From positions 431-64,430 of the forward strand of contig DASTWO010000033.1 of the NCBI GenBank assembly GCA_035776675.1: 64,000 nucleotides of DNA, given 5' to 3'. Under the pieces are notes generated by a model. The model had not been told where the DNA came from and did not search any database. It saw only the letters and a list, made by a program, of their open reading frames with translations. Positions 25,916 through 39,281 of the stretch are shown here, one piece after another (within the stretch, counting starts at the first letter, position 1; each line of letters starts with the position of its first letter). Source of the DNA: Bacillales bacterium. GTDB lineage: Bacteria; Bacillota; Bacilli; Bacillales; DASSOY01. A program made the translations under genes and the position numbers.

Positions 25916-25959
25916 ATGTTACAATAAGGTCACATATAAAATGTTACTTATAAGTCACA
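25916..25959 (+). promoter_or_regulatory. Two 19-bp imperfect palindromes (candidate operator of the ArsR-family gene)
   Basis: ATGTTACAATAAGGTCACA (25916-25934) and ATGTTACTTATAAGTCACA (25941-25959). Each is TGTTAC-N6-GTCACA. TACAAT inside the first could be a -10 element. Confidence 0.5.
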
Positions 25960-25987
25960 CGATTTTTTTGAATAGAGGAGGTTGAAC

Positions 25988-26764
25988 GTGAATGAGCAAC
26001 TAACGGAGGTTTTCAAGGCGTTGGCCCATCCATACAGACAATCAATTCTGGATTTGTTGGCTGCAAGACCTATGACAACCGGTGAGGTAAGCGACCATTT
26101 TACAGAGGTTTCCCGATACGCTGTCATGAAACATTTGAATACACTTGTGGAAGCAAACCTTGTTGTGGCAAGGAAGAAGGGGCGTAAACGCTACAATTAT
26201 TTGAATGTCATGCCTTTGCAAATGATTAAGGAACGCTGGCTGAATGGTTATGATTCACTCATGGCTGAATCTCTATTGAATGTCAGAGAACTTTCCGAAA
26301 ACCCTGAGGAGGAGAAGATAATGGCTGAAAACTTGGAGAACCAATTGTTTGAAATCGAACAGGAAGTGCAAATTAAGGCCCCCAGACAAGACGTATTTCA
26401 TGCTTTGACCCATAAAATTAACGGATGGTGGTCGGAACGTTTGTTTAAGGATTCCGTAATGGAAGTGGAACCGCGGTTGGGCGGTAAGTTTATTGAGACA
26501 GGTGAAGACGGAAAGGCGGCATTGTGGGGAATGATTACCTACATTGTTCCGGATAGTGAAATTTGGTTGGATGGAAATTTGGGAATGCCGGGTCCGGTTA
26601 AAGGCCATTATCAGTATAAGCTAGAAGAACTGGACGAAGGTACAACCCAATTGAAATTATCCCATTCGGTAGTCGGGCCGCATGTCTCGGATTGGCGGAA
26701 GGACTACGAAAACGGCTGGAGAAGACTACTGGAAACAAAGTTGAAAGATTACCTTGAAAAATAA
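25988..26764 (+). CDS. ArsR/SmtB-family HTH regulator fused to an SRPBCC (AHSA1-like) ligand-binding domain
   Basis: FKALAHPYRQSILDLLAARPMTTGEVSDHF...VMKHLNTLVEANLV is an ArsR HTH. The C-terminal roughly 140 aa are SRPBCC-like. GTG start 7 nt after GAGGAGG (TTG 25982 is the alternative). Confidence 0.8.
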   Translation: MNEQLTEVFKALAHPYRQSILDLLAARPMTTGEVSDHFTEVSRYAVMKHLNTLVEANLVVARKKGRKRYNYLNVMPLQMIKERWLNGYDSLMAESLLNVRELSENPEEEKIMAENLENQLFEIEQEVQIKAPRQDVFHALTHKINGWWSERLFKDSVMEVEPRLGGKFIETGEDGKAALWGMITYIVPDSEIWLDGNLGMPGPVKGHYQYKLEELDEGTTQLKLSHSVVGPHVSDWRKDYENGWRRLLETKLKDYLEK

Positions 26765-26841
26765 AAGAATGGTTGATGACGGCTGGCTGGCTGGGGATTT
26801 CCAGTCAGTCTTTATTTTTCCTATTTTTCGACAGGCGTTCT

Positions 26842-26850
26842 TGGTATAAT
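26842..26850 (+). promoter_or_regulatory. Extended -10 element (TGGTATAAT) upstream of sigma factor 1
   Basis: TGnTATAAT match about 55 nt upstream of the proposed start at 26905. Confidence 0.45.
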
Positions 26851-26904
26851 CAAATTAATGATGAAATCCATTTTTGCCTTGAAATGGAGAACGGAGGAGA
26901 TCAC

Positions 26905-27624
26905 TTGGCTGGTGTGTTTGACAAACAGGTTTCCGAAGAATGCGAGTTCACGGCCGCCATTCAATCCTATCATGCCGATCTGTCACGTTATTGCCGTATG
27001 ATGACAGGAACCCCTTGGGATGCGGACGACCTCTTACAGGAAACGTTAATCAAGGCCTTTAAATCCGGATCTGTCTTAGAGAACCATCCCGCACCGAAAG
27101 CCTTTTTGTTTCGTGTTGCTACGAATACATGGATTGACCATTGTCGAAGGAACAAAGTTCCGGAAGATACATATGAAGATGAACAATTTGCCAATGGCAA
27201 TGATAAGTATGAATTTGAGGTTCGTGAGGCGTTGGAGACTCTTATTTACCGGTTGCCTCCGCGACAGGTGGCCATTGTTTTGCTGATGGATGTATTCGGA
27301 TTTTCCGCTAAATCCGCGGCTGCCATGATGGAGGTTACGGAAGGGGCGGTTAAGGCAGCTCTGCACCGTGCCCGTTCAACGTTGAAAAAGGTGAAAATAG
27401 AGGAAAAAAGGGAACAAATCCTTTTGAAATCAAAGAGTGCGGCCGAACTAGTCGAAATATTCTTGGAAGCGTTCCAACAACATGATGCTGTTGCCGTGAG
27501 CCGAGCGTATCTTTCTCTTCAGGATCATGGGGTCGAGGTCAAAAGGGTCTCGAGCGGGAAAATCCTTTCTTTTCAATTTCAGGATCCCGATGGCAATGTT
27601 TTCACTGTTACTGCGAAGGCCTGA
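26905..27624 (+). CDS. ECF-type sigma-70 family sigma factor (sigma-1) with a short atypical C-terminal extension
   Basis: Region 2: DADDLLQETLIKAF...PKAFLFRVATNTWIDHCRR. Region 4: LPPRQVAIVLLMDVFGFSAKSAAAMMEVTEGAVKAALHRARSTL. TTG start after GGAGGAG (the track ORF starts at 26773). The C-terminus ends ...ILSFQFQDPDGNVFTVTAKA. Confidence 0.85.
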   Translation: MAGVFDKQVSEECEFTAAIQSYHADLSRYCRMMTGTPWDADDLLQETLIKAFKSGSVLENHPAPKAFLFRVATNTWIDHCRRNKVPEDTYEDEQFANGNDKYEFEVREALETLIYRLPPRQVAIVLLMDVFGFSAKSAAAMMEVTEGAVKAALHRARSTLKKVKIEEKREQILLKSKSAAELVEIFLEAFQQHDAVAVSRAYLSLQDHGVEVKRVSSGKILSFQFQDPDGNVFTVTAKA

Positions 27625-27640
27625 ATTTTCTTTAATCCAT

Positions 27641-27669
27641 GCGTATCTTTTTTGATGCCAGTCTCGTTA
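27641..27669 (+). promoter_or_regulatory. ECF-type promoter P1 (GCGTATC-N17-CGTTA)
   Basis: GCGTATC 27641-27647, T-rich spacer, CGTTA 27665-27669. About 75 nt upstream of the VOC gene at 27745. The motif is shared with P2-P4. Confidence 0.55.
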
Positions 27670-27744
27670 ATAGAGTGAAGTTACCATAAGCAGCGGCAAC
27701 ATAGTGACCTCCTGTTGTCGCTGTGCCAAATGAGGAGGCAGAGA

Positions 27745-28509
27745 ATGAACTTTTTGCAGCTCAACAAGGTTTATTTACCGGTGAAAGACCTTGAGGACAC
27801 AGCAAAATGGTATCGGGATCAGTTTGGTTTAACAAAATCCTGGGAAGGCGAAGTGGACGGCCGTCAAGCAGCGGAACTTGCCTTTTCGGAGACTTCGTTC
27901 ACATTGATCGGCTCTGATCATGTCAATCGCTATTCTCACATTCCATTTAACTTCCATACGAATGAGATTGAAGCCGTCCGTGATTCATTAATGCGGAAGG
28001 GGAGTGTCGTAACGGATGTCATTGATGAAGGAGAAATGTATTGCTGTGACTTTTATGATCCTGAAGGAAACCGGATCGGGTTAGTTGAGGAAAAGAATGG
28101 GGCAACCGACCAGATGCAAGTGGGCGGAACCTTCTTGACCGTCCGAGACTTGGAAGATGCCATTAAATGGTACCGAAACAAGCTCGATTATGACTTTCAC
28201 TTTTTCAGTGTTACCGGAGGTGCTGGTTACATTGGCCAGACCCCGGAATATGTCCAGGAATTGACGATACGATATGCGCCTGTCAGCAGTGAATCATTTC
28301 AGACAAGATCAAGCCGGATGGCGATTGTGGAAACGCCTGAATTTTTCCCTCTCACCTACAAGGCGTATAGTATATTAAGTTCAAATATCGAGGAAGACTA
28401 TGAAACTTTGCGTTCCCGAGGAGTACATATCGTTCAGAAGTCCGATCAGAAGTTCACGTTTCAGGATGCAGACGGAAATGAAATAGAAATTGTGAAGGAA
28501 AAGCGCTAG
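27745..28509 (+). CDS. Two-domain VOC family protein (glyoxalase/bleomycin-resistance fold)
   Basis: RBS GAGGAGG. Domain starts VYLPVKDLEDTAKWYRDQFGL and TFLTVRDLEDAIKWYRNKLDY. Domain ends FYDPEGNRIGLV and FQDADGNEIEIV. Confidence 0.85.
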   Translation: MNFLQLNKVYLPVKDLEDTAKWYRDQFGLTKSWEGEVDGRQAAELAFSETSFTLIGSDHVNRYSHIPFNFHTNEIEAVRDSLMRKGSVVTDVIDEGEMYCCDFYDPEGNRIGLVEEKNGATDQMQVGGTFLTVRDLEDAIKWYRNKLDYDFHFFSVTGGAGYIGQTPEYVQELTIRYAPVSSESFQTRSSRMAIVETPEFFPLTYKAYSILSSNIEEDYETLRSRGVHIVQKSDQKFTFQDADGNEIEIVKEKR

Positions 28510-28705
28510 ATTATAAAAAAAGAGGGGATAACCATCAAACAGGGGGCACATTTCAATGTAAAGCGTCCAAATCCTGTTAGAAAAAAGTTGATGACAATGT
28601 TATGCCTCTTGGTGGTAATGACGGTTAAGAAAGGGAGCAGGTCACGATGAGTCATTTTTTTCAGAAAGGATGATAGATTTTTTCAAGCTATGGCATCTGT
28701 AGATT

Positions 28706-29470
28706 ATGGCACGAAAAAGAGGCGGCATTGTGGGGAAGGAATTGTTGGAAGTGAGAGGTTTCAAATCGGATGATGGCCGGGATAAAGGGCTTGTAGATAG
28801 AGCTCGGTCGGGAGACCGCGAAGCTTTCGGCGAATTGGTACGCCGGCACCGCGCCAAAGCTTACGGTTGGGCAAGTACTTTGGCTAATGACGCTCATTTG
28901 GCTGATGATATTGTTCAAGACGCTTTGATAGGGGCTTTTCTTCATGTTGGAGAGCTTATGGACAGTGACCGATTTGTGCCCTGGTTTCATAGAATTGTCC
29001 GTAACCAGGCATACATGAAGCTAAGGCGGGGCGGTCAATACGGAAAGGAAAGTCCGTTTTCAGCCCTCGAAGAACAAAATGGCAGCGAATCGAGCGATAT
29101 TGACCGAATTTTATTCCAACTTACTGTTTCGGTGGACGCCGATGAAAGTCTCGATCCGGCTGTTCGGCTGGTGAAGAAGGAAATGATCCGTGGCATTCAT
29201 GAGCTTCTCCATTGTTTAAGCCAACGGGAACGAAGCGTTTTTGAGGCCTTTTTCTTCCAGCAACTTTCACCCATTGAAATCGCACAATTATTTCAAACCC
29301 AAACCGGCAATGTTTACAATATCCTCTCACGTTCCAGGAGGAAAGTGCAACGGGAGCGGATTCGTGTCCATCTCAATGGTTTTGTCAGAAGGCGAAAAGA
29401 ACAGAAATTTCCCTCGAAGAAGACTTTGGCAAAACCGATCGAATTCTTTCAAGGAGAGGAAAGCAGATGA
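28706..29470 (+). CDS. Sigma-70 family (ECF-like) sigma factor (sigma-2)
   Basis: LVDRARSGDREAFGELVRRH, DDIVQDALIGAF, FVPWFHRIVRNQAYMKLRR (region 2). LSQRERSVFEAFFFQQLSPIEIAQLFQTQTGNVYNILSRSRRKV (region 4). The start codon is uncertain (alternatives GTG 28733, TTG 28745). Confidence 0.8.
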   Translation: MARKRGGIVGKELLEVRGFKSDDGRDKGLVDRARSGDREAFGELVRRHRAKAYGWASTLANDAHLADDIVQDALIGAFLHVGELMDSDRFVPWFHRIVRNQAYMKLRRGGQYGKESPFSALEEQNGSESSDIDRILFQLTVSVDADESLDPAVRLVKKEMIRGIHELLHCLSQRERSVFEAFFFQQLSPIEIAQLFQTQTGNVYNILSRSRRKVQRERIRVHLNGFVRRRKEQKFPSKKTLAKPIEFFQGEESR

Positions 29471-30432
29471 CCAAACAAGATGTCAGGCCGATGACGTGTA
29501 CTTCAGCAGCACAATCGATGTTTGCCGCAATACAGTATACCGACAAAAAGGATTTGTCGCTCGCCGAAGTAATGGGTTTCACCAGTCATGCATTCCGCAT
29601 TAACATTAACGCGGAAAATGTAGATGTAGCCGGGCCAACCGGGTATGAATGGAGAGATATCTTTCCGGAAGGACTTCGAAACCTGGGGTTTCAAACTGCA
29701 TATCGAGGAGCTCCTAATTTCACACCACCGACACCTAATGAGCTTTCCGAGGCAATTGAACTAGTTCAAAAAAGTATCGATAGAGGTGTTCCCGCGATTG
29801 CATGGGATTTGTTTATCCCCGAGTTTGGCCTGCTATACGGATATGACGATGATAAGCAAATCCTCATGGCGAAGGATTTCGAAAAAGAAGGAGAACTTGA
29901 CTACGAAAAATTAGGAAGAGGACAAATCGGAGAATTGTTTGTTCTTACGATTGAGGATTCGATCCCTATAGATAAAACCAGTTCATTAAAAGGCGCGCTG
30001 GAAATGATTCTGAACCATGCACACAAAAGGCAACATAAGCATGAAAAGCCACCCTATCAAAATGGGCTGGCCGGTTATGACGCATGGATTCAGGCATTTT
30101 CTAATCGAAGTGTCGACCCGTTCGGGAATGCTTACAACACATTAGTCGTTTCCGATGCCCGAAGGTATGCGGTTGATTTTTTAAGCGGGATTGTAGAAGA
30201 CGTTCAATATGAGGAAACTGTACGCCATTTAGCGTCTCGGTCTGCGGCTCATTACAAAAAGGGAAAAGATTCATTGGAAAAGCTTGCGGGTAAGTTTCCG
30301 TTTCCTGATGGAGGAAGCCCGAACGAGGGAGTGGAGGCTGAACTAGCGATCCAGCTGTTGTCCGAAGCCAAACAGGCCGAACAACAAGGCGTCGAGCTTC
30401 TGGAAGAAATGTATGATCGATTAAAAAATTGA
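29467..30432 (+). CDS. Cytoplasmic papain-like (BtrH-N/DUF4872-like, tentative) protein, translationally coupled to sigma-2
   Basis: ATGA overlap with the sigma-2 stop. No TM segment. Paralogous to 33014..34051, sharing MGFTSHAFRI/YGMTGIAFLI, RNLGF/ENLGI, SIDRGVPAIAWDL/AIDSGYPCFSFEL and LLYGYDDD/IVFGYNET. Confidence 0.6.
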   Translation: MTKQDVRPMTCTSAAQSMFAAIQYTDKKDLSLAEVMGFTSHAFRININAENVDVAGPTGYEWRDIFPEGLRNLGFQTAYRGAPNFTPPTPNELSEAIELVQKSIDRGVPAIAWDLFIPEFGLLYGYDDDKQILMAKDFEKEGELDYEKLGRGQIGELFVLTIEDSIPIDKTSSLKGALEMILNHAHKRQHKHEKPPYQNGLAGYDAWIQAFSNRSVDPFGNAYNTLVVSDARRYAVDFLSGIVEDVQYEETVRHLASRSAAHYKKGKDSLEKLAGKFPFPDGGSPNEGVEAELAIQLLSEAKQAEQQGVELLEEMYDRLKN

Positions 30433-30441
30433 AAGTATTGT

Positions 30442-30479
30442 ACTCAGGCTGTGGGTTGCTGCAGTCTGGGAGTTTTTTT
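30442..30479 (+). terminator. Probable rho-independent terminator
   Basis: Imperfect GC-rich stem (ACTCAGGCTG...CAGTCTGGGAGT) followed by TTTTTTT. Confidence 0.55.
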
Positions 30480-30485
30480 GTTCAG

Positions 30486-30512
30486 CCGTAACTTTTTTTC
30501 CTATTCTCGTTA
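30486..30512 (+). promoter_or_regulatory. ECF-type promoter P2 (CCGTAAC-N15-CGTTA)
   Basis: CCGTAAC 30486-30492, T7 tract, CGTTA 30508-30512. About 38 nt upstream of the GyrI-like gene. Confidence 0.5.
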
Positions 30513-30549
30513 GTAGGATGAGTATTCAATTCTCAAGGAGGCAATATCA

Positions 30550-31029
30550 ATGGAAGTGAAAATTGTTGAAAAAGAGGCATTTCAGCTGGTCGGCCTTGCC
30601 ATCAAGACAAAGGGGGACGGCGACCCTTCGACAAATGATATCTCTAAGCTGTGGGATCGGTTCGATGCAGCAAGCTCTCAAATTGAACACAGCATCAAGC
30701 CCGAAATCAAATTTGGCCTCATGACTTTTCCGGATCATTGGAAACACGGGGAGCCTTTTCAATACATGGCGGGTGTCGAAGTGAATCAATTTGAAAGTCT
30801 TCCTGAAGATATGGAAAGCGCAGAACTCCCTAAGCAGCAATATGCTGTGATTCATTACAGAGGGAAAATTTCGGGTATCGGCGTAGCCTATGATTACTTC
30901 TACCGAGAATGGCTCCCGAAGTCGGGATATGAGTTCGGGAACAACTTTGAGATGGAATACTATGATGGGAAATTCTATGGCCGCGACAACCCCGAATCAG
31001 AAATCTCCTTTTATTTTCCGGTAAAATAA
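30550..31029 (+). CDS. GyrI-like small-molecule-binding domain protein
   Basis: MEVKIVEKEAFQLVGLAIKT...FQYMAGVEV...YAVIHYRG...EFGNNFEMEYYD...ISFYFPVK is the typical GyrI-like/AraC-effector-binding (SbmC-like) pattern. Confidence 0.85.
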   Translation: MEVKIVEKEAFQLVGLAIKTKGDGDPSTNDISKLWDRFDAASSQIEHSIKPEIKFGLMTFPDHWKHGEPFQYMAGVEVNQFESLPEDMESAELPKQQYAVIHYRGKISGIGVAYDYFYREWLPKSGYEFGNNFEMEYYDGKFYGRDNPESEISFYFPVK

Positions 31030-31046
31030 AATTTTCTTAGCAGTCA

Positions 31047-31076
31047 GCGTATCTTTTTCCAAGAGTAATGTGTTTA
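31047..31076 (+). promoter_or_regulatory. ECF-type promoter P3 (GCGTATC-N17-TGTTTA) upstream of sigma-3
   Basis: GCGTATC 31047-31053, T-rich spacer, TGTTTA 31071-31076 (degenerate -10). Confidence 0.45.
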
Positions 31077-31111
31077 TCTAGTGAATGAAGCATTGCAGGA
31101 GGTTATGAAAA

Positions 31112-32053
31112 GTGACAAAAGAAGACTTATCCCAACTCAGCCATCCATTACGAGATCTGGAGAAAGAATTTCAGTTGCTGGTGGAGCCCCATCGCCCAGC
31201 GTTGTGGCGTTATTGTCGGATGATGACAGGTTCGCCATGGGAGGCGGAGGATCTTGTTCAAGAGACGCTGATGAAGACTTATGCCACACTTCCGAAACTG
31301 TGGCAACCAACCATTCCTAAAGCTTTCCTATTTCGAATCGCCACCAACACCTGGCTGAATCAATGTCGAAAGGCGAAGCGTCTGGTTGATGAACCTTGGG
31401 AGGAAGAAGATTCCATTGATAGGGACACGGACCCGTTCGAGGCAAGGGAAAATATCGAATTTCTTGTCAGGCATTTATCGCCGCGACAGACAGTCGTGTT
31501 TCTTTTAACAGAGGTATTTGATTTCAAAGCGCGTGAGGTGGCGGAAATGGCTGGAACAACAGAGGGCACGGTTAAGGCACTCTTGCACAGAGCTCGGAAA
31601 AAGTTAGAGGAGAAAACCGGAGAAACTTTCTTTCAGAACGAAGATACGCCGGCATTTAGCAAGGGGGAAACTGCTGTCGTTGAAGCCTATGTAGAAGCCT
31701 TTAACCGCCGAGATCCGGATGCAATTGCCAAATTAATGGATGATCGCGTAGTGTGCGATATCGTTCATATCGCAGAAGAATACGGAAAAGACGTCGTTCG
31801 TCAGAACTCACTGGAAGACTGGTCCAGAGATCCGATGCCTATGCAAACGGATGTAAAGGTATTGTGGAACAAGCCGGTATTTGCCGTAATGGGAGAGAAG
31901 AAGGGTCAGAAAGTGCTGTACGACCTGATCGAACTTGAAATTGAAGACGGCAAAATCGTCAAAAAGAAAGATTATTATTTCTGTCAAGATTTATTGACGG
32001 CAGCGGCAGAAGCATTAGATGTTCCCGCACATCTTAATGGGTACAGTTTCTAG
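31112..32053 (+). CDS. ECF-type sigma factor (sigma-3) with a C-terminal SnoaL/NTF2-like domain (SigJ/ECF41-like architecture)
   Basis: GTG start 9 nt after AGGAGG. Region 2: AEDLVQETLMKTY...PKAFLFRIATNTWLNQCRK. Region 4: LSPRQTVVFLLTEVFDFKAREVAEMAGTTEGTVKALLHRARKKL. This is followed by about 130 aa beginning AVVEAYVEAFNRRDPDAIAKLMDD (NTF2-like). Confidence 0.85.
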   Translation: MTKEDLSQLSHPLRDLEKEFQLLVEPHRPALWRYCRMMTGSPWEAEDLVQETLMKTYATLPKLWQPTIPKAFLFRIATNTWLNQCRKAKRLVDEPWEEEDSIDRDTDPFEARENIEFLVRHLSPRQTVVFLLTEVFDFKAREVAEMAGTTEGTVKALLHRARKKLEEKTGETFFQNEDTPAFSKGETAVVEAYVEAFNRRDPDAIAKLMDDRVVCDIVHIAEEYGKDVVRQNSLEDWSRDPMPMQTDVKVLWNKPVFAVMGEKKGQKVLYDLIELEIEDGKIVKKKDYYFCQDLLTAAAEALDVPAHLNGYSF

Positions 32054-32106
32054 TTATCGGTAAAAAACTTTGGCCACCAAAAAAATAAAAACTTTTTCTA
32101 AATCGA

Positions 32107-32135
32107 CCGTATCTTTTCGGTCGGTTTCTTCGTAA
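32107..32135 (+). promoter_or_regulatory. ECF-type promoter P4 (CCGTATC-N17-CGTAA) in front of the 12-gene VOC operon
   Basis: CCGTATC 32107-32113, CGTAA 32131-32135. 19 nt upstream of the ATG at 32154. Confidence 0.55.
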
Positions 32136-32153
32136 GTAGTGTGGAAGGTGAAA

Positions 32154-32564
32154 ATGACTGAGTTGAAAGGAGTTGGCGCATTGAAATTCATAAAGCGAGT
32201 GGACAGTATTTTCATTCCTGTCAAGGACATTAAGGAATCGGAAGAATGGTACAAAAAAGTTTTTGATTTAACAGTGGTTTATCGAAGTGAAGACAACATC
32301 GGTTTTCGATTTAACGAACCGTGGCCGTTGAAAACCGGGTTATCCCTTTACAAAAGTGAGGAAGCCGGAAAGCCTTCCCCTGTCCATTTTAATTTTTACA
32401 CAGAAGATGTAGATGGATTTTATCAATACCTTTCCGATGAGGGAGTCGAGCCTGATGAGGTTCAAAGTGAAGACGGGATGCGCTTTTTCGATTTCCATGA
32501 CCCGAGCGGAAACCGGTTCAACGTTGTGACCTTTAAGGAAATTGCGCTGGAACATATTGATTAA
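32154..32564 (+). CDS. Single-domain VOC family protein
   Basis: RBS GGAAGGTGA. IFIPVKDIKESEEWYKKVFDL ... FFDFHDPSGNRFNVV. Confidence 0.85.
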   Translation: MTELKGVGALKFIKRVDSIFIPVKDIKESEEWYKKVFDLTVVYRSEDNIGFRFNEPWPLKTGLSLYKSEEAGKPSPVHFNFYTEDVDGFYQYLSDEGVEPDEVQSEDGMRFFDFHDPSGNRFNVVTFKEIALEHID

Positions 32565-32599: not shown

Positions 32600-33004
32600 T
32601 TGAAATTGCGTGTCGGAGGAATTTTCATTCCGGTTACCGATTTGGAACGGTCAATTGAGTGGTATATGGAGTGCTTGAACCTAAAGCTCGTTGATCGCTG
32701 GCCGGAAGGTGCCGGTGCTGGCTTTACATTTGAAAATGGGGAAGCCGGCCTGGGGCTAGTCAAGGTGGAGACGAAGCAACCAACGGAGTTCAGAGTTTCC
32801 TCGCGTTATCAGAACTGCTATTACAACTTCGAACCTGAAAATGTCCAGGAAATGCATCAATTTCTGAAAGGTAGAGGTGTGAAAGTGACTGAGATTGAAG
32901 ATCACGGTCCCATGGAAGGGTTTGATTTTTTCGATCCTGATGGGAATCCCTTCAGTGCAGTTCGGGATAAACCACAATCACCTTATTATCATCCGTTTCA
33001 GTAA
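32600..33004 (+). CDS. Single-domain VOC family protein
   Basis: TTG start 5 nt after GGAGGGG (the track ORF starts at GTG 32576). IFIPVTDLERSIEWYMECLNL ... FDFFDPDGNPFSAV. Confidence 0.85.
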   Translation: MKLRVGGIFIPVTDLERSIEWYMECLNLKLVDRWPEGAGAGFTFENGEAGLGLVKVETKQPTEFRVSSRYQNCYYNFEPENVQEMHQFLKGRGVKVTEIEDHGPMEGFDFFDPDGNPFSAVRDKPQSPYYHPFQ

Positions 33005-33013
33005 AGGGGAGAG

Positions 33014-34051
33014 ATGATGGCAGGCAAAACATTGGATGAACTGAAATTTTCTTATTGTGACCATACGCTCATCGGCAGTTTGAAGGCCAGCCTCGATTTT
33101 CTGGGGATCGACGTGTCCGAGGATTGGTTATACGGAATGACCGGGATTGCTTTTCTCATCGTCACTGATGAAAAGGTGTCTACAGATGCTGTAGCGTATG
33201 GCTATGAGCCAGGTATGGTATTTCGCCTCGCCGAAAATCTGGGGATCCGAGTCAAGGGCATCCACCGTGTTGAAGATCCTCATGATCGTGAAGGGTTAAT
33301 CCAATCAGCCTGGTCGCAAGCACGCCGCGCCATAGATAGCGGATATCCGTGTTTCAGCTTTGAATTGGAGGAACAGCACGAGCATGCCATTGTTTTCGGC
33401 TATAATGAAACCGGTTACCTAACGCATGGTTGGCATCAAAGGGGAACTCGCTCCATTCCTTGGGAACTGCTGGGTCAAAGCATGTGCCCTTGTGAAAGGT
33501 GTGAAGACCAACGGAATAAAAGTAATGTCGTACCCACAAAAAGTTTCATTGATCTTCATTGGGTTGAACCCGGACCGAAGGAAGACCCGGCGAGGGCTTT
33601 TGAACAAATGCTTTCTTTTGTATTAGCCGTTTCCTTTGAACGTCTTTGGGTCTACAGAGGTTTTGATGGAGGTTCGTCAGCTTACGATCATTTGATTCAA
33701 GCCGTTGAGGAAGGCACCGCGATAGGAAAACACATTGGTTATAACTTGAGTGCATGGAGTGAGGCGCGGAGCCATGCACCGGGATTTCTTGAACAAGTCC
33801 ATGAACATTTGGAAGGCAATGCTGATGGTTCATTGGACCGGGCAACCGCAGCTTACCGAGACGTTGCAGAATTATTAGAAGAAGCGTCAGAACTGTATCC
33901 GTGGAGACAGCCGATGGAACCTGTCGGTGTGAATGAAACAAGCCGTAAGGCGGCAGCCCTTTTGAAAAGAGAGAAAGATGCCGAAATCAATGTTTTAGAT
34001 GCATTGAAGGAACTTCACAACACTTTAAATAGAAAGGAATCTGCCAAATGA
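33014..34051 (+). CDS. Papain-like (BtrH-N/DUF4872-like, tentative) protein, paralog of 29467..30432
   Basis: Shares motifs with 29467..30432 (listed there). Candidate nucleophile Cys in SYCDHTLIGSL. No TM segment. Stop overlaps the next gene. Confidence 0.6.
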   Translation: MMAGKTLDELKFSYCDHTLIGSLKASLDFLGIDVSEDWLYGMTGIAFLIVTDEKVSTDAVAYGYEPGMVFRLAENLGIRVKGIHRVEDPHDREGLIQSAWSQARRAIDSGYPCFSFELEEQHEHAIVFGYNETGYLTHGWHQRGTRSIPWELLGQSMCPCERCEDQRNKSNVVPTKSFIDLHWVEPGPKEDPARAFEQMLSFVLAVSFERLWVYRGFDGGSSAYDHLIQAVEEGTAIGKHIGYNLSAWSEARSHAPGFLEQVHEHLEGNADGSLDRATAAYRDVAELLEEASELYPWRQPMEPVGVNETSRKAAALLKREKDAEINVLDALKELHNTLNRKESAK

Positions 34052-34842
34052 CAAAAGCCAATCAAACAAGTTCAGTACAACCGCGTGTGAGTTGCGCCTT
34101 TATTCACGTCAGTGATTTGAAGAATTCAGTGGTATTTTACAGCATGATCTTTGGGCTGCCGGTATTGAAAGAGCGTCTTAATGGAGGCCCCGTCTATGGA
34201 GTCGATATTGAAGGTGGAACAGGTTTGCTTTTGGATGACAACAGTGTGAACAAGCAACATCCTGATTGGGATGAGAGTCAGCAAAATTTATGTATGGTGG
34301 AAACCAAGGATATTGAGGCGGCGTATGAACACGTCAAAAACCTGGAGGCGGAAATTGTGTCCGAACCCGAGAATCCCCATCCCGGATTGGCTTTCTTTCG
34401 TTTTCGTGACCCGGACGGCAATGTTCTTATGGTCACGCAAAGTGATTATGAAGGAGAACCCCTTGCCCGGGAGGAAAAGACCCCGATCCACAACCGGATT
34501 AAAGCCATTTTTATTAATGTCACCGATATGGAGAGAGCCGTCAAGTGGTACGAAGGGTTATTCAGTGTGTCCATGGCCCAAAATCATAATGCTCCCGTGC
34601 TTAATATTCCAACAGAAGGCGGGTCAGACCTTTTATTGGATGCCAACCGCTTTTTGCAGGGCGATGATTACAAAACATTGCTGATGTTAGACACAGACGA
34701 TGTCGATGAAGCTTATCGATTTTTGAAAAGCCGCGATGTCGAGATTTTCAAGGAAATTGAAAGATACGACGATGTTTCATTTTTCACCTTCAAAGATCCG
34801 GACGGCAATGTCCTGATGGTTTGCCAGGAACACAAGAAATAA
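34048..34842 (+). CDS. Two-domain VOC family protein
   Basis: AFIHVSDLKNSVVFYSMIFGL...FRFRDPDGNVLMV and IFINVTDMERAVKWYEGLFSV...FTFKDPDGNVLMV. Confidence 0.85.
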   Translation: MTKANQTSSVQPRVSCAFIHVSDLKNSVVFYSMIFGLPVLKERLNGGPVYGVDIEGGTGLLLDDNSVNKQHPDWDESQQNLCMVETKDIEAAYEHVKNLEAEIVSEPENPHPGLAFFRFRDPDGNVLMVTQSDYEGEPLAREEKTPIHNRIKAIFINVTDMERAVKWYEGLFSVSMAQNHNAPVLNIPTEGGSDLLLDANRFLQGDDYKTLLMLDTDDVDEAYRFLKSRDVEIFKEIERYDDVSFFTFKDPDGNVLMVCQEHKK

Positions 34843-34862
34843 ATAGATGAAGGGAGGAAGGC

Positions 34863-35216
34863 ATGGAGATGATTCGAAAGGGTGTTAACGGCATTTTGGT
34901 TTACTGCCGTGACCTGCATAAGTCTGCAAGATGGTATTCCCAACTGGGGTTTACGATAGGGGAACATGACTTTGATCACTTCGTTGATTTGGAAGTAGAC
35001 GGGAATTATGTATTGCATCTGGTGAAAAAGGAGGACTTTACATCGCTGGCACCCCCTGCTTTCACTTTCGATACACCGGACATTGAGGCGACTTTTGAAA
35101 GGTTGAAAGAAAACGGAGTGGACATCATCGGAGAGTTGAACCGACACTCGAACCATTCGGAGTTCAGCTTCAGAGACCTTGACGGGAATACATTGATGTT
35201 TACAAAGTGGGATTGA
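34863..35216 (+). CDS. Single-domain VOC family protein
   Basis: ILVYCRDLHKSARWYSQLGFT ... FSFRDLDGNTLMF. RBS GGGAGGAAGG. Confidence 0.8.
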   Translation: MEMIRKGVNGILVYCRDLHKSARWYSQLGFTIGEHDFDHFVDLEVDGNYVLHLVKKEDFTSLAPPAFTFDTPDIEATFERLKENGVDIIGELNRHSNHSEFSFRDLDGNTLMFTKWD

Positions 35217-35254
35217 ATCGGTTCTAAGGTGCCGAGAAAAAGGGGGATGGCAGG

Positions 35255-36001
35255 ATGATTCAGTATATCGACGCCGTTTTTTTGCCTGTATTCAATTTGG
35301 AAGAATCATTGAAATGGTATAAGAAACACTTTGGGATCAAAGTGAATTGGCGGGATACAAACGGATGGAACGCCGCCGGGGTAGGATTTAATTCCGGTGC
35401 TATGGTGATGATGGAGCGTGAGACTATCAACCACAGTGATCATATTCGTTTTAACTTTTATACGCCAGATGTGATAACCTGCTATCAATCATTAGAAGAG
35501 AATGACGTTGAGCTTAATCAATTGGTTCAATATGAAGACATGGATTGTTTCGATTTCAAGGATCCGAGCGGGAACTGGATTGGGATTGTAGGCCGTTGGA
35601 CAGAAAAGGGAATAAGTCCGGGAGAGTTCGTTGGCCCCGATGCTATTTTCTTGCCTGTGAGTAACATCGAGCTGGCCATAGAATGGTATCAAGCACTTCT
35701 GGGGGGCGAATTTGATTTGGCAACAGATCTTCATTCGCAATATCCGTTCCGGTATGGTTTCCACAAGAACGGGGAAGACCGGGACCATCCGCGGTGGTTT
35801 AATTTAGTGGAAACCCCAAATCGTTACCCTCAATCACATATACCTTTTAACATTCAAATCCAGGATGCTTCGAAAGTCCACCGTGATTTACAGGGAAAGG
35901 GTATTTCAGTTACAGATATCACGGATACTGGAGCCTTCCGTTGGTTTAACTTTGTTGATCCGGATGGTAATGAAATCGGATTTGTTGAAGGCGGAAGATA
36001 G
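35255..36001 (+). CDS. Two-domain VOC family protein
   Basis: VFLPVFNLEESLKWYKKHFGI...FDFKDPSGNWIGIV and IFLPVSNIELAIEWYQALLGG...FNFVDPDGNEIGFV. Confidence 0.85.
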   Translation: MIQYIDAVFLPVFNLEESLKWYKKHFGIKVNWRDTNGWNAAGVGFNSGAMVMMERETINHSDHIRFNFYTPDVITCYQSLEENDVELNQLVQYEDMDCFDFKDPSGNWIGIVGRWTEKGISPGEFVGPDAIFLPVSNIELAIEWYQALLGGEFDLATDLHSQYPFRYGFHKNGEDRDHPRWFNLVETPNRYPQSHIPFNIQIQDASKVHRDLQGKGISVTDITDTGAFRWFNFVDPDGNEIGFVEGGR

Positions 36002-36037
36002 GTTTGAACTAGACCTTAATAAATTGGAGGGACCATT

Positions 36038-36433
36038 GTGTCGATAAAGAAACCGTATGAGATTTCCTATATTCAAATCCCCGTTAAGGATCCAAAGAAA
36101 TCAGCTGATTTTTATGAAGGAGTACTCGGGATGACCTATTCGTTTCCTTATAATCCGGCGGATCGGGCGGCTTTTATGGAATTCCAAGGGAACATCGCCC
36201 TGGGGCTCATTCAATCTGAGACCATTCCAGACCTGACCTTTCGTGATACTTTGGGCAATGTCAATGCCGTTATTCAGTTCACCGTTCGTGATATTCAAGA
36301 TTTCTACAATTCGTTAAAGGAACAAAATGTGCCGGTCGGTCCAATGATCTTCAAAGAAGACGGCGGATATAATTTTACAGTTCAAGATCCTGACGGACAT
36401 GTATCCCATGTATGGGGTGGTTGGCCGGAATAG
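36038..36433 (+). CDS. Single-domain VOC family protein
   Basis: GTG start after GGAGGGA. IQIPVKDPKKSADFYEGVLGM ... FTVQDPDGHVSHV. Confidence 0.85.
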   Translation: MSIKKPYEISYIQIPVKDPKKSADFYEGVLGMTYSFPYNPADRAAFMEFQGNIALGLIQSETIPDLTFRDTLGNVNAVIQFTVRDIQDFYNSLKEQNVPVGPMIFKEDGGYNFTVQDPDGHVSHVWGGWPE

Positions 36434-36463
36434 TAAAATCTTTTGAAAGGATGTTGAGGAACT

Positions 36464-36949
36464 GTGTGTGAGTTAATTAAAAGACCAGAAACGAAAGTTG
36501 CCGGGTTACGGGTACAATGCGATACTCTGGAAGAATTCTCGATCGAGATTCCGAAGGTATTTGACAAGCTGGACGAGTGTCTTGATGGAATTCCGAATAT
36601 TGTTGACTCCAGCGGCAGGATTGGAATCCATTTGGCAGAAGATGAAAACAACGCGAATGCAGAGGCGGCGGATTACGGTTATCTGGTTTGTGTTGAAGTG
36701 AGCAGCTTCGAAGATATCCCAACAGATTTTGAAACAGACACCATTCCAGCCGGCAAATTTGCGGTAAATAGCCATCAAGGTCCGGTCAATCCCAACATTC
36801 ATCATTCCTATGCCGCTCTTTATAATTGGATGTCGGAACATGGACACGAAGAGCTGCCGGTTGGGCACGTTCTTGAACATTATGATGAGCGCTATGATCG
36901 TAAGAACTTCAGCGGCGAAATGGAAATTCTCATTCCAGTAAAATCATAA
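36464..36949 (+). CDS. GyrI-like small-molecule-binding domain protein
   Basis: ETKVAGLRVQC...YGYLVCVEVSSFEDIP...KFAVNSHQG...HVLEHYDERYD...MEILIPVK. Confidence 0.8.
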   Translation: MCELIKRPETKVAGLRVQCDTLEEFSIEIPKVFDKLDECLDGIPNIVDSSGRIGIHLAEDENNANAEAADYGYLVCVEVSSFEDIPTDFETDTIPAGKFAVNSHQGPVNPNIHHSYAALYNWMSEHGHEELPVGHVLEHYDERYDRKNFSGEMEILIPVKS

Positions 36950-37015
36950 GGTTTTCCTTTGAAGATGAGAAAGTAAACCGAAGGGTACAACCTTTAAAAT
37001 AAGGGAGACAACATA

Positions 37016-37513
37016 ATGAAAATGAGACTTGAACCAGTGGAAAGGTTTAAGGTTGTCGGAATTCGAATCATCGATGAGATGGAAAACCTCAATGCTCGAA
37101 TCCAACAGGCAGCCAGAGAGCTGCAAGAGCGGATGCATGAAATTCGCGGAGTGAGAAATCCGGATGTCCTGTACGGAATATCACCGCCAAACTATAAAGG
37201 CAATCCGGGACCTCTCGATTTTTATGTCTGTGTGGAAGTGGATCCTTTCGAGAACTTGCCTTATGGAATGGTCAACATCACGATAGACCCGGAACTGTAT
37301 GCCGTTTGTACATATGAGAAAGATTCAATGAATAACAAAGGGAATGCGTATGATTTCACGACTACGTGGCTACAGGAAAAAGGATATGAGTACTTCGATG
37401 CTGCCTATTATTTTGAGGTTTACAATGTCAACGGCGAATGGACTAATTTAGAAGATTTGGATAATACCCATAATCGAATCAAAGTTTATTCACCGGTTAG
37501 AAAAGGCGGGTAA
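37016..37513 (+). CDS. GyrI-like small-molecule-binding domain protein
   Basis: FKVVGIRI...DFYVCVEVDPFENLP...YAVCTYE...YYFEVYN...IKVYSPVR. RBS AAGGGAGA. Confidence 0.8.
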   Translation: MKMRLEPVERFKVVGIRIIDEMENLNARIQQAARELQERMHEIRGVRNPDVLYGISPPNYKGNPGPLDFYVCVEVDPFENLPYGMVNITIDPELYAVCTYEKDSMNNKGNAYDFTTTWLQEKGYEYFDAAYYFEVYNVNGEWTNLEDLDNTHNRIKVYSPVRKGG

Positions 37514-37516
37514 TCC

Positions 37517-38296
37517 ATGAATTCTTTATTTGAAAAGATCGGAACAGTGTGTGTTCCGGTAAAAGATGTTCAAAAATCAGCGGATTGGTATACAGAGAAA
37601 CTGGGAATGCGGGTTTGTCGGAAAGATGAAGCTCAAGCGGAACTCGAGGTTTGCGGAGGAGAAACCGTCTTGATCCTTAAGGCAGCTGAACCATTTAACC
37701 CCGTTAATTACTTGCATCGTAAGGGAATGGTCACGCATTTTAATTTCAATACGTTGGATGCCGAACTCGCTCATTTGATGCTCAAAGACAAAGAAGTTGG
37801 GGTGACTGATGTCCTCGATGCAGATTTTCTCAAATGTTTCGCTTTTCGGGACCTGGACGGAAATGTTCTCAGTGTTTGTTATGAAAAAGAGCATTCTATG
37901 TTCTATCAGCCTATCACGGAAACTAGCATTTCTTTATTCGAACGGATTGAAGCGGTTTTTATCCTCGTTCGGGATTTGCGAAATACCCTAGACTGGTATC
38001 TTCATCTGCCCGGGCTGGAATTGTTAAATGACTGGAAGCAAGGAGCGGACTTGAAAGTGGGGAACGGAGAAACGATTGTGACTCTCATTCAAGTAGATGA
38101 TTTCACCCCGCGGCAAAACAGTTATTTTGAATTTACCACCGCCAATATGAAGAAGACGCATTCTTATTTAAAAAAGATGGGGGCGAGCGTTTCTGAAATT
38201 GATTCGACTCCTCAAGAAACTTCCTGTCGGGTTCAGGACCCTGAAGGCAATATTTTCGGTGTGAGGCGTAGAAAAGTAGCGGCCCCAACCCTATAA
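37517..38296 (+). CDS. Two-domain VOC family protein
   Basis: VCVPVKDVQKSADWYTEKLGM...FAFRDLDGNVLSV and VFILVRDLRNTLDWYLHLPGL...CRVQDPEGNIFGV. Confidence 0.85.
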   Translation: MNSLFEKIGTVCVPVKDVQKSADWYTEKLGMRVCRKDEAQAELEVCGGETVLILKAAEPFNPVNYLHRKGMVTHFNFNTLDAELAHLMLKDKEVGVTDVLDADFLKCFAFRDLDGNVLSVCYEKEHSMFYQPITETSISLFERIEAVFILVRDLRNTLDWYLHLPGLELLNDWKQGADLKVGNGETIVTLIQVDDFTPRQNSYFEFTTANMKKTHSYLKKMGASVSEIDSTPQETSCRVQDPEGNIFGVRRRKVAAPTL

Positions 38297-38346
38297 TGAG
38301 AGATCTTCAAAAAATCACTTAATATAGATTTGAAAGGAGAATGAAG

Positions 38347-38811
38347 ATGAAGGAAGAACAATTATTTGAGCAAATGAAAATGTGGCGTGGTTGGACAGTA
38401 GAGCTTCTTAAAACCGTTCCCCATGGGATTGTTGATGAAATCCCGAATGGATTTCGGAACAATATTCGGTGGAACGCAGGCCATATCCTGGCAGGGTGGG
38501 ACCATACGATGTTCCCTGCAGTGGGAATGGAAAGGCAACTGCCGTTATCCTATCACCTTATGTTTCCGAGAGGCAGTAAACCTGCCGATTGGACTGAAGA
38601 ACCGCCATCGATGGATGAATTGATTCAGCGACTTGAAGAGCAGCCGCAACAGATTGAAGAAGCGTGTAAAGGGCACTTGGAGGATCCGCTCGAAGAGCCG
38701 TTTCTGCATATGACCACCCTGGGAGAAATGTTTGTTTTTCACATGGCCCATGAGAACCTGCACGTCGGTACGATAAACAGTATGAAAAAAACCCTTGAAA
38801 CAGGTGAATAA
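38347..38811 (+). CDS. DinB-superfamily (DinB_2-like) protein
   Basis: WRGWTVELLKTVP...RWNAGHILAGWDH...FVFHMAHENLHVGTI shows the His-triad pattern of DinB-like helical bundles. Start taken at the second ATG, after AGGAGA. Confidence 0.75.
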   Translation: MKEEQLFEQMKMWRGWTVELLKTVPHGIVDEIPNGFRNNIRWNAGHILAGWDHTMFPAVGMERQLPLSYHLMFPRGSKPADWTEEPPSMDELIQRLEEQPQQIEEACKGHLEDPLEEPFLHMTTLGEMFVFHMAHENLHVGTINSMKKTLETGE

Positions 38812-38815
38812 TTTC

Positions 38816-39235
38816 ATGTCAAAACCGCAAATCTCGAAAATCGCCACCGTGGAAATTCCGGTTTCGGATTTGGACCGGTCCGTGAAATGGTACACTGAGA
38901 AATTGAATCTCCATCTTGATTTCAAAGGTGACCAAAACGCGATGTTACTCTTTAATAAGAAAGGCACACCCTCAATTTTTCTTGTAGAAACTCATGAAGA
39001 AAGCAGGCTTTCCTTTCTCAATTCAAACACCGGCGTTACACATAGTGTCATTGACTTCTATACAGAGGATTTGAAAGGGTTCTATGAATATCTGAAGGGA
39101 CAAGATGTAGAGGTAGGGTCTTATAATGCGGATCCGGATGATCCAAACGGATTTGGCGGATTTGGTTTTAAAGATCCTGACGGCAATTGGCTCAGTGCCT
39201 GTAATGTAGATCATGACAAGTCGATTCCTGAGTAA
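38816..39235 (+). CDS. Single-domain VOC family protein
   Basis: VEIPVSDLDRSVKWYTEKLNL ... FGFKDPDGNWLSA. Start at the internal ATG, 4 nt after the preceding stop. Confidence 0.85.
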   Translation: MSKPQISKIATVEIPVSDLDRSVKWYTEKLNLHLDFKGDQNAMLLFNKKGTPSIFLVETHEESRLSFLNSNTGVTHSVIDFYTEDLKGFYEYLKGQDVEVGSYNADPDDPNGFGGFGFKDPDGNWLSACNVDHDKSIPE

Positions 39236-39257
39236 TCGGCTGCATATAAATCATCAT

Positions 39258-39281
39258 TATCCCGACTTCAACGTCGGGATA
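39258..39281. terminator. Bidirectional hairpin terminator between the VOC operon and the ldt operon
   Basis: Perfect 9-bp stem TATCCCGAC/GTCGGGATA with a 6-nt loop, between convergent genes. The flanking T-tracts are weak. Confidence 0.55.

Follow-up and report, generated by a model that had tools for sequence, protein, structure and literature searches.

The stretch of DNA analysed here, further referred to as the window, comprises 64,000 nucleotides of contig DASTWO010000033.1 from the metagenome-assembled genome of a soil Bacillales bacterium (GCA_035776675.1). It contains an island of 19 consecutive open reading frames (ORFs), all on the + strand, which spans positions 25982–39235 and encodes three sigma factors of the extracytoplasmic function (ECF) type together with an array of proteins from the vicinal oxygen chelate (VOC), GyrI-like and DinB_2 families. 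The initial annotation had described this region as a one-strand block of ligand-binding and detoxification folds, and the ORFs bear this out. Proteins and regions of the window were scanned with Pfam ("above cutoff" means above the Pfam gathering threshold), and genomic contexts were drawn from homologs of the window proteins, exact look-ups of these proteins in the contig index having given no match. The searches with hidden Markov models (HMMs) that the initial annotation had proposed as a check assigned its VOC, GyrI-like, DinB_2, ArsR-AHSA1 and sigma genes to these families. They gave nine VOC genes with 13 domains (PF00903 above cutoff in all nine, two matched stretches in four), three GyrI-like or Cass2 genes (30550, 36464, 37016), one DinB_2 gene (38341), an ArsR-SRPBCC fusion (HTH_20/ArsR and AHSA1 at 25982) and three sigma genes (26905, 28706 and 31112; Sigma70_r2 and r4_2), all as it had described. 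The sigma genes and the genes and elements directly associated with them are as follows.

26842-26850, + strand: candidate extended −10 housekeeping promoter for sig1, TGGTATAAT, read from the sequence
26905-27624, + strand: sig1, ECF sigma factor (sigma2 and sigma4) with a C-terminal extension of ~60 aa; Pfam r2 and r4_2
27439-27621, + strand: tail of sig1, VOC-derived by sequence comparison; helix-helix-strand-strand-strand, with the end F.F.DPDGN..V
28669-28698, + strand: sig2-type promoter GATGATAGAT-N13-GGCATCT, the only intergenic copy in the window
28706-29470, + strand: sig2, ECF sigma factor with a long sigma2-sigma4 linker; Pfam r2 and r4_2; alternative start GTG at 28730
29467-30432, + strand: pap1, conserved partner of sig2; predicted BtrH/AziU fold; 4-nt overlap with the sig2 stop codon
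31112-32053, + strand: sig3, ECF sigma factor with a SnoaL-like C-terminal extension; Pfam r2 and r4_2
33014-34051, + strand: pap2, paralog of pap1, inside the 12-gene operon described below; its stop codon overlaps the start of VOC4x2

Four units of the island share an upstream motif, CGTA(T/A)CTTTT followed 15–17 nt further on by (C/T)GT(T/A). It precedes VOC1x2, gyrI1, sig3 and VOC2, and we refer to it as the sig1/sig3-type promoter.

27642-27669, + strand: CGTATC-N17-CGTTA upstream of VOC1x2; orthologous motif at L083 8225, L001 9512 and L084 8737
30487-30512, + strand: CGTAAC-N15-CGTTA upstream of gyrI1; from the motif search
31048-31075, + strand: copy upstream of sig3; ortholog at L083 11137
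32108-32135, + strand: copy upstream of the 12-gene operon; ortholog at L083 12225

CGTAWCTTTT has four perfect matches in the 64-kb window, which are these four sites only, all on the + strand. The gapped pattern matches the same four sites and no others, with 1.2 matches expected by chance. All four lie within the island, in intergenic DNA, 18–75 nt upstream of start codons. The motif occupies orthologous places (8225, 8704, 11137 and 12225) in a related contig from a metagenome-assembled genome (MAG), L083. It stands between a sigma gene and a VOC gene in Alkalihalobacillus sp. AL-G (L001) and directly after the sigma gene in L084, where no VOC gene is called next. Paenibacillus azoreducens and P. 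sacheonensis have the motif in a variant form; for the copy before VOC1x2, variants are in L085 and L086. The initial annotation had placed the genes under sigma factors of their own; a promoter motif that is common to four units, occurs nowhere else in the window and is kept in relatives supports their reading as a coordinated regulon of this kind. The copy before sig3 would correspond to autoregulation or to a cascade from sig1 to sig3.

Sigma70_r2 and r4_2 are the only matches of sig1, sig2 and sig3, and TIGR02937 is above cutoff, as in ECF (group 4) sigma factors. The initial annotation had called all three extended. Extended they are, but in three unlike ways: sig1 carries a VOC-derived tail, sig2 a long linker and a short tail accompanied by a separate partner protein, and sig3 a SnoaL-like domain. 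The tail of sig1 takes up ~60 residues after region 4 and ends in SFQFQDPDGNVFTV. It is kept in a family of 225–260-aa sigma factors from Paenibacillus, Cohnella, Bacillus, Alkalihalobacillus and MAGs, and D227 and P228 are invariant in the alignment of 34 family members. Plain BLAST of the tail finds the C-terminal end of most island VOC domains, and a VOC HMM built from the island matches the C-terminus of all 34 sigma factors. In hhalign, the tail alignment matches the 13 VOC domains of the island with a probability of 98.2% and an E-value of 2.9e-14 over 49 columns, the matched region being the C-terminal helix and three strands of the VOC domain. The AlphaFold2 (AF2) model has the corresponding secondary structure (helices 179–191 and 195–207, strands 211–217, 220–226 and 232–238; pLDDT about 85–92). 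By these sequence comparisons, the sig1 tail is derived from the C-terminal part of a VOC domain. A VOC gene adjoins the tail-bearing sigma gene in seven of eight contexts (the window, L083, L001, L085, L086, L057 and L058; the exception is L084). In L084, the sig1 homolog is preceded by TTGGTATAAT, as in the candidate sig1 promoter of the window. A literature search for glyoxalase-type ECF extensions returned only an ECF56 preprint and a review on metals and sigma factors, and no VOC-type extension was found in it.

Sigma factors sig1 and sig3 are paralogs with 42% identity, and sig1 has its VOC-derived tail in place of a SnoaL_2 domain. The extension of sig3 is ~140 aa long; its SnoaL_2 match is weak and partial (1.1e-4, 23 bits against a cutoff of 27), and sig3 homologs carry PF12680. 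The best NCBIfam matches of sig3, PRK08241 and TIGR02960, are below cutoff.

The second sigma factor belongs to a pair that recurs far beyond this island. A scan of one genome per species gave 325 loci with pap relatives, of which the best 80 were examined. In these, 75 out of 81 pap1 homologs directly follow a sig2-type sigma gene of the same strand, and the pap1 homologs have no other general neighbour. A conserved promoter, tGATAGAt-N13-GGCATC, lies 5' of the sig2-like genes, the window copy at 28669–28698 included. The dyad ATAGA-N15-GCAT was found upstream of 54 of 79 such genes, while in shuffled sequences any dyad reached at most eight. Given this conserved promoter upstream of the sigma genes, the pair is likely to autoregulate. 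We considered whether sig2 might also read the CGTATC motif and rejected this, since the motif is not found before the GyrI and VOC genes of the 80 pap1 loci.

An exhaustive profile search for pap yielded 2104 representative clusters, and domain architectures were read for the best 150 of them. Among these 150, pap stands alone in 69 and is fused to a sigma factor in 45; sigma-pap-VOC or sigma-pap-VOC-VOC proteins make up seven, GyrI-pap, pap-GyrI and pap-DinB_2 proteins a few, and a BlaR1-type protein with pap repeats one. About a third of the 150 representatives thus join sigma and pap, or sigma, pap and VOC, in one polypeptide. In the sigma-pap fusion proteins, the sigma portion has sig2 as its best match in 56 cases out of 56. 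Fusions of this type are present in the sequenced isolates Kroppenstedtia guangzhouensis and Melghirimyces profundicolus; WP_188431775.1 and WP_170109605.1 are two such natural proteins. The GyrI domains fused to pap have gyrI1 as their nearest window paralog (29–34% identity, E-values down to 6e-21). In Fictibacillus, Bacillus salitolerans and several Paenibacillus, the genes sig2, pap1, gyrI and VOC are contiguous with gaps of 10–30 nt; in the window, a terminator and a sig1/sig3-type promoter stand between pap1 and gyrI1.

By gene order and fusion, sig2 and pap1 are one functional unit. Because of the same synteny and fusions, pap1 is most likely the regulatory (anti-sigma-like, putatively soluble) subunit of the sigma factor, and the ligand-binding domains would serve it as sensors. 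If pap1 is an anti-sigma factor, it would be of a different structural kind from Class I: it has a single, non-conserved Cys and no ASD/ZAS signature (HxxxCxxC). No literature was found that links DUF4872 with sigma factors or GyrI-like proteins with anti-sigma factors. Four very large proteins (P0285, P0244, P0272 and P0292; 1455–2969 aa) contain three to five tandem pap domains according to our own HMM, and one of them has an N-terminal BlaR1-type M56 sensor-protease domain, which places the pap domain in membrane signalling proteins as well.

The initial annotation had called pap1 and pap2 papain-like. For pap1, the fold agrees with this, but neither protein has a Pfam or NCBIfam match; in Pfam, no family, BtrH_N and DUF4872 included, was found for either at E ≤ 0.01. 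A few UniRef names of pap relatives mention DUF4872. The AF2 model of pap1 (pLDDT 94.3, pTM 0.92) has AziU3/AziU2 as its only significant relatives in Foldseek (E-values 7e-7 to 5e-6, TM-score about 0.55; best match 7wuw_C, E-value 6.7e-7, TM-score 0.57). The N-terminal half of the protein weakly matches C39 peptidase-like domains and calpain, and the C-terminal half is a long helical bundle. The modelled pap1 thus has the bipartite fold of BtrH-like proteins, a papain-like N-domain followed by a helical C-domain, an architecture described for CtaG, AziU2/U3, AsbE and BtrH (PMC12865890). No PDB chain matched pap in sequence searches, profile search included, so the link to BtrH/AziU is one of fold only. 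Across the pap1 family, the residue at the catalytic Cys position varies (Cys11 is not kept), and Phe or Trp takes the place of the His. Lacking the catalytic Cys and His, pap1 is treated here as a pseudo-enzyme, i.e. as a putative catalytically dead protein of the BtrH/AziU fold.

The paralog pap2 aligns with pap1 over the full length at 23% identity, the fold having been modelled for pap1 only. Its Cys15 and His124 align to the papain-type catalytic columns, and its two relatives also keep Cys and His; the family is very rare, with three clusters found. One relative, in Alkalihalobacillus sp. AL-G, belongs to an operon of a sigma gene with the VOC tail, a VOC gene and pap2, next to adaA/ogt/alkA genes. 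On one side of that operon (L001 617-8632) lies a YcaO/nitroreductase gene set of the thiazole/oxazole-modified microcin (TOMM) type with a divergent VOC gene, and on the other (11115-13148) an alkylation-repair operon with OGG/HhH-GPD glycosylase, ogt-like and adaA-like genes.

The putative targets of these sigma factors, listed below, are the VOC, GyrI-like and DinB_2 genes.

27745-28509, + strand: VOC1x2, two domains; PF00903 3.8e-16, two stretches
30550-31029, + strand: gyrI1; GyrI-like 3.3e-27; in other species, the corresponding GyrI domain is fused to pap
32154-32564, + strand: VOC2; PF00903 1.2e-10
32600-33004, + strand: VOC3; PF00903 2.6e-15; 86% ortholog in L083
34048-34842, + strand: VOC4x2, two domains; PF00903 1.1e-26, two stretches
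34863-35216, + strand: VOC5; PF00903 1.9e-13
35255-36001, + strand: VOC6x2, two domains; PF00903 3.9e-18, two stretches
36038-36433, + strand: VOC7; PF00903 1.5e-12
36464-36949, + strand: gyrI2; GyrI-like 2.7e-20
37016-37513, + strand: gyrI3; Cass2 1.8e-15, GyrI-like 5.8e-12
37517-38296, + strand: VOC8x2, two domains; PF00903 4.6e-15, two stretches
38341-38811, + strand: DinB_2 protein; PF12867 1.2e-15; His triad H48, H137, H141
38816-39235, + strand: VOC9, last gene of the operon; PF00903 3.8e-13

All nine VOC genes score 42–94 bits against the PF00903 cutoff of 20.6. Their domains share 24% identity on average and 35% at most, and the island has no long DNA repeats, only DPDGN-coding and promoter segments recurring at the DNA level. 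The low identity and the lack of long repeats show that the paralogs are old, which agrees with the diversification proposed in the initial annotation. The metal-ligand columns were set by the solved glyoxalase 9u42. The first metal-binding His is present in none of the 13 domains and the last-strand Glu in one, and none of the 13 has the full ligand set of the VOC metalloenzymes (glyoxalase I, FosA/B and extradiol dioxygenases). For VOC4x2 and VOC8x2, the best scores with NCBIfam equivalogs of glyoxalase I, Fos proteins and dioxygenases are 14–40 bits, the cutoffs being 115–366. VOC2 and VOC4x2 have marginal matches only among solved structures, and the Ble-like_N matches of the VOC genes are weak and below cutoff. 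From their sequences, these proteins look more like binders or sequestering proteins, or like enzymes of a non-canonical kind, than like classical VOC metalloenzymes.

These observations bear on two enzymatic explanations. According to the first, the VOC proteins detoxify endogenous or general reactive metabolites such as methylglyoxal, quinones and aldehydes, in the manner of glyoxalase I or of the MhqR regulon, which responds to quinones in B. subtilis. VOC family membership favours it, and the His triad of the DinB_2 protein fits thiol-dependent chemistry; SigG of Mycobacterium tuberculosis, discussed below, has targets proposed as glyoxalases (PMC3776920). However, the full canonical set of metal ligands is found in no domain, the NCBIfam scores of the two proteins scanned are far below cutoff, and the island has no glyoxalase II, reductase or thiol-biosynthesis genes, so we regard this explanation as improbable. 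The second, an aromatic catabolic cluster in which the two-domain VOC proteins are extradiol ring-cleavage dioxygenases, would account for their architecture and length (248–264 aa) and for a weak NCBIfam similarity to HpaD and catechol 2,3-dioxygenase. It is largely refuted by the scores with these two models (14–27 bits against cutoffs above 320), by the absence of the Fe(II) ligands from the island VOCs and by the absence from the island, according to Pfam, of hydrolase, dehydrogenase, oxygenase and transporter genes; we consider it very unlikely.

The three GyrI proteins score well above the cutoffs of 26–27 bits (gyrI1, 96, and gyrI2, 74, with GyrI-like; gyrI3, 58, with Cass2). The nearest solved sequence to gyrI1 is the effector domain of BrlR (5xbi, E-value 3.4e-19). 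Hydrolases of cyclopropanoid cyclopropyl groups have an acidic pair, E157/E185, and an aromatic cage (PMC5684135). All three island proteins have a Glu in a C-terminal hExY motif, and gyrI1 has no match to lin2189 (3B49) at E ≤ 0.01. The DinB_2 protein scores 58.6 bits (cutoff 24.8), keeps the His triad and matches PDB entry 5wk0 with an E-value of 3.8e-15.

From VOC2 to VOC9, 12 genes (32154–39235) follow each other with gaps of 35, 9, −4, 20, 38, 36, 30, 66, 3, 44 and 4 nt, and no convincing + strand terminator was found within the block. It looks like a single operon, as the initial annotation had thought likely. The island as a whole is not a single unit: a strong terminator at 30443–30470 and at least six promoters of three kinds subdivide the region. 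The two hairpins in question are as follows.

30443-30470, + strand: intrinsic terminator of the sig2-pap1 unit; 12-bp stem with 6 GC pairs, then a T7 run
39257-39282, no strand assigned: hairpin separating the operon from the convergent YkuD gene; 10-bp stem, −19.5 kcal/mol, z −3.9

The second had been described as a strong hairpin closing the operon. It is present, but lacks a U-tract and lies between convergent genes; it is probably a bidirectional terminator.

A similar island is present in L083, with gene gain, loss and pseudogenes. The order there is sigma, VOC, sigma, VOC, DinB_2, GyrI, the sig3 ortholog, at least eight VOC genes, GyrI and RidA. Orthologs with 60–86% identity were found for sig1, sig3, VOC3, VOC4x2, VOC1x2, VOC6x2 and dinB; the remaining VOCs are merely 25–37% identical to those of the window. 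No pap gene is present in L083. Its sig3 ortholog (11201–12152) is split by a frameshift into 109 and 220 aa, and remnants of a VOC2-like gene (12153–12460) and of another VOC N-terminus (16325–16513) lie in "intergenic" DNA. Shared orthologs, differing content and pseudogenes together indicate that the array is conserved as a type and evolves by birth and death. The strongly different gene content and the remnants might also point to a passive pile-up of paralogs at a duplication hot spot, with no common regulation or function. This is hardly credible, being refuted by the shared and conserved promoters and by the recurrence of the same domain set as fusions in distant genomes; the operon is also tightly packed and DNA-level repeats are absent. 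In a Paenibacillaceae MAG (L057 1813-8802) and Bacillus salitolerans (L058 5481-11926), the layout is combined as in the window: a VOC-tail sigma gene and its neighbouring VOC gene come first, followed by sig2-pap1 and by GyrI genes, VOC genes or both. The two modules, i.e. sig1 and sig3 with their promoters and sig2 with pap1, thus travel together.

Several sig2-pap1 loci have DNA-repair neighbours. In P. castaneae and three other Paenibacillus (L068, L059, L069 and L075), an operon of a nucleotidyltransferase and a UvrA-like protein lies beside the pair, three of these four operons being preceded by a second sig2-type promoter, and a gene for an AlkZ-like crosslink glycosylase lies near the pair in three loci. 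In P. castaneae (L068 5032-8953, 11440-12633), the second promoter is 74 nt upstream of the Polbeta-type nucleotidyltransferase gene, which overlaps the gene of a 968-aa UvrA-like paralog, and the AlkZ-like gene is just downstream of pap. The second promoter together with the UvrA-like and AlkZ-like genes suggests a sigma-controlled set for DNA-damage or drug tolerance. We infer that the function of the window island is xenobiotic sequestration or detoxification, which is supported by the missing canonical metal ligands of its VOC domains and by the UvrA-like, AlkZ-like or Ada/Ogt/AlkA genes near related loci in some relatives.

The covalent fusion of VOC, GyrI and DinB domains to the pap partner means that some of these proteins may be sensors rather than effectors. 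In the main rival explanation, most of the VOC, GyrI and DinB proteins are interchangeable sensing subunits that dock on pap1/pap2 or on the half-VOC tail of sig1, each paralog tuning sigma activity to a different small molecule, and the outputs lie elsewhere in the genome. VOC proteins normally pair half-domain modules of the kind seen in the sig1 tail. The partial VOC domain in this tail, the VOC genes next to tail-bearing sigma genes and the sigma-pap-VOC, sigma-pap-VOC-VOC, GyrI-pap, pap-GyrI and pap-DinB proteins of other organisms are what such an array would produce. Against this, the position of 13 domains behind sigma-dependent promoters is typical of target genes, a sensor is normally required in small quantity and ahead of induction, and L083 retains its VOC array with no pap gene. 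We consider the sensor array unlikely. A more specific scheme, in which a dead papain/BtrH-fold adaptor links sig2-family sigma factors to exchangeable VOC, GyrI-like and DinB modules, the sig1 half-VOC completes a ligand-binding site by pairing with the VOC protein encoded next to it, whereby a bound drug directly switches the sigma factor on, and the paralog array forms a combinatorial repertoire for toxin recognition, is put forward only tentatively.

We favour, as reasonably probable, an ECF-controlled ligand-sensing regulon of cytoplasmic, mostly non-metal binding proteins, arranged in two interlocked modules and probably directed against electrophilic or genotoxic small molecules. In this regulon, sig1 is probably made constitutively from its extended −10 promoter (26842–26850) and would be held in check through its VOC-derived tail until a cytoplasmic small molecule relieves the check. 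By analogy with ECF41, ECF42, ECF56 and ECF238, the tail of sig1 and the SnoaL-like domain of sig3 probably gate sigma activity on a cytoplasmic cue. One or both of these sigma factors would then fire the four CGTATC-type promoters, with sig3 probably induced as a positive-feedback amplifier. In the other module, sig2 and pap1 would be translationally coupled and autoregulated from GATAGAT-N13-GGCATC, and pap1 might restrain sig2 until a ligand is sensed, possibly via GyrI1. The VOC, GyrI and DinB products most likely act on various electrophilic or DNA-damaging small molecules of environmental origin, by binding, sequestering or thiol-conjugating them.

Several observations weigh against this scheme. 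The sigma factors are assigned to the promoters by position only. Only 21 of 79 loci have VOC or GyrI cargo after sig2-pap1, and genotoxin-repair neighbours occur in only about 5–8 of the 80 loci. No Pfam match gives pap1 a recognisable anti-sigma domain, and pap2, with its Cys and His, may be an enzyme of unrelated role. The loss of the canonical metal ligands is also compatible with non-canonical catalysis. Finally, DNA-damaging agents and methylglyoxal revealed no phenotype in a sigG mutant of M. tuberculosis (PMC3776920).

Among described systems, the actinobacterial SigG/ECF56 system comes closest to the island. The initial annotation had not recognised the island as a described system. 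This holds for the VOC-derived tail, the pap partner and the size of the array, but extended ECF56 sigma factors that induce glyoxalase/VOC genes were already known, namely SigG (Rv0182c) of M. tuberculosis and SVEN_4562 of Streptomyces venezuelae (PMC3776920; bioRxiv 10.1101/2020.01.30.927608). DNA damage induces SigG, which in turn drives VOC genes (PMC3776920), and the ECF56 regulome of S. venezuelae includes genes of the glyoxalase family (bioRxiv 10.1101/2020.01.30.927608). As in sig3, the C-terminal extension of ECF56 is SnoaL-like and there is no classical anti-sigma factor; the strongest targets are of the VOC/glyoxalase family, including the two-domain Rv0911, and the dedicated promoter is strictly conserved. 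The island motif likewise precedes VOC1x2 and the VOC-rich operon, a likeness by position only. On the other hand, ECF56 is actinobacterial and the island comes from a different phylum; the ECF56 promoter is CGATGAGTT-N14-GGTC, that of the island CGTATC-N17-CGTTA; the MPP(F/Y/L) motif that follows sigma4 in ECF56 was seen in neither sig1 nor sig3; and the NCBIfam models TIGR02960 and PRK08241 are below cutoff for sig3, while the tail of sig1 is VOC-derived, not SnoaL. The targets also differ, being in the island a 13-domain array beside the sigma genes, plus GyrI-like and DinB proteins.

Other extended ECF sigma factors likewise carry a sensor or inhibitor within the sigma polypeptide (PMC8999054; PMC7826278), but the catalogue of extension types contains no VOC-like and no papain/BtrH-like one (table in PMC8999054). 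ECF115, a group from Firmicutes, has a C-terminal extension of ~70 residues proposed as a Clp degradation tag (PMC8999054). Compared by description only, its extension length and taxon match sig1, and ECF115 could be the sig1 family, although a degradation tag differs from a ligand-binding remnant. The proteins BtrH, CtaG, AsbE and AziU2/U3 resemble pap1 in fold (Foldseek E-value 7e-7, TM-score about 0.55); pap1 differs in its low identity to them (9–11%), in the loss of Cys and His and in its genomic role as a partner of a sigma factor instead of a member of a biosynthetic cluster. GyrI-like binders and hydrolases (SbmC, the BmrR and BrlR effector domains, YtkR7/lin2189 and CtaZ) belong to the same Pfam family as the island proteins, and drug binding and protection are well established for this family (PMC5684135; PMC9545259). 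The island members differ in being stand-alone proteins under ECF control, or fused to pap elsewhere, and not MerR or AraC DNA-binding fusions; with no 3B49 match for gyrI1, there is no support for placing them in the YtkR7/lin2189 hydrolase subfamily. Bleomycin and mitomycin binding proteins are VOC-fold resistance proteins with no metal ligands, and FosB of B. subtilis is a VOC resistance gene under ECF sigmaW in Bacillales. The island VOCs share the absence of metal ligands with the former, but their Ble-like_N matches are weak, the two scanned score far below cutoff with FosB models, and each known case is a single gene as opposed to the diversified array of the island.

What was already known in kind is an ECF-controlled stress regulon with extended sigma factors and VOC targets, for which the actinobacteria provide the precedent. 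In the literature searched, we found no description of a VOC-derived sigma tail, of a pseudo-enzyme with the papain/BtrH fold that is a widespread partner or extension of sigma factors and is tied to VOC, GyrI and DinB modules, or of a VOC array of this size and diversification. Among the signal transducers of bacteria, ECF sigma factors form the third largest class, and many of their groups have no membrane anti-sigma factor. As leads, the locus offers defined promoters, a sigma extension from the same fold as the putative targets and a widespread partner that ties sigma factors to drug-binding folds. If the proposed regulon is real, it would give a direct route to the ligands of the VOC/GyrI "resistome" proteins of soil Bacillales and a source of orthogonal, ligand-switchable sigma/promoter pairs for synthetic biology.

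The first gene of the island stands apart from these modules.

25982-26764, + strand: fusion of an ArsR-type helix-turn-helix domain with AHSA1/SRPBCC; Pfam HTH_20 1.3e-11, AHSA1 2e-10; NCBIfam SdpR/ArsR-SmtB subfamily

A hairpin with a T-run (26785–26810) follows it, and the gene is absent from L083. It forms a separate transcription unit, and its membership in the regulon is uncertain. A sigmaA-like promoter, TTGCTT-N16-TACAAT, lies upstream (25898–25981) and overlaps repeated ATGTTAC and GTCACA elements, which look like an operator for autorepression.

On both sides, as far as the flanks were scanned, the island is bordered by ordinary chromosomal genes unrelated to it. On the − strand at 20959–25755 and 39306–41081, Pfam identified a TctC-family tricarboxylate receptor, a DpiA-like response regulator, a BNR/Ycf48-like beta-propeller and a YkuD L,D-transpeptidase with a peptidoglycan-binding domain, and left one 368-aa protein with no match. 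By eye, the 541-aa ORF at 22819–24444, a neighbour of the response regulator gene, resembles a cognate sensor kinase, and further flanking ORFs look like spore-germination genes. Self-resistance next to a biosynthetic gene cluster was considered and rejected, as no such cluster is found among the flanks scanned. No RNA family was found within the window with Rfam. A 21-nt repeat (AGGCGGCATTGTGGGGAA.GA) with one mismatch, longer than chance readily gives, connects position 26514–26534 in the ArsR-SRPBCC gene with 28720–28740 at the 5' end of sig2.

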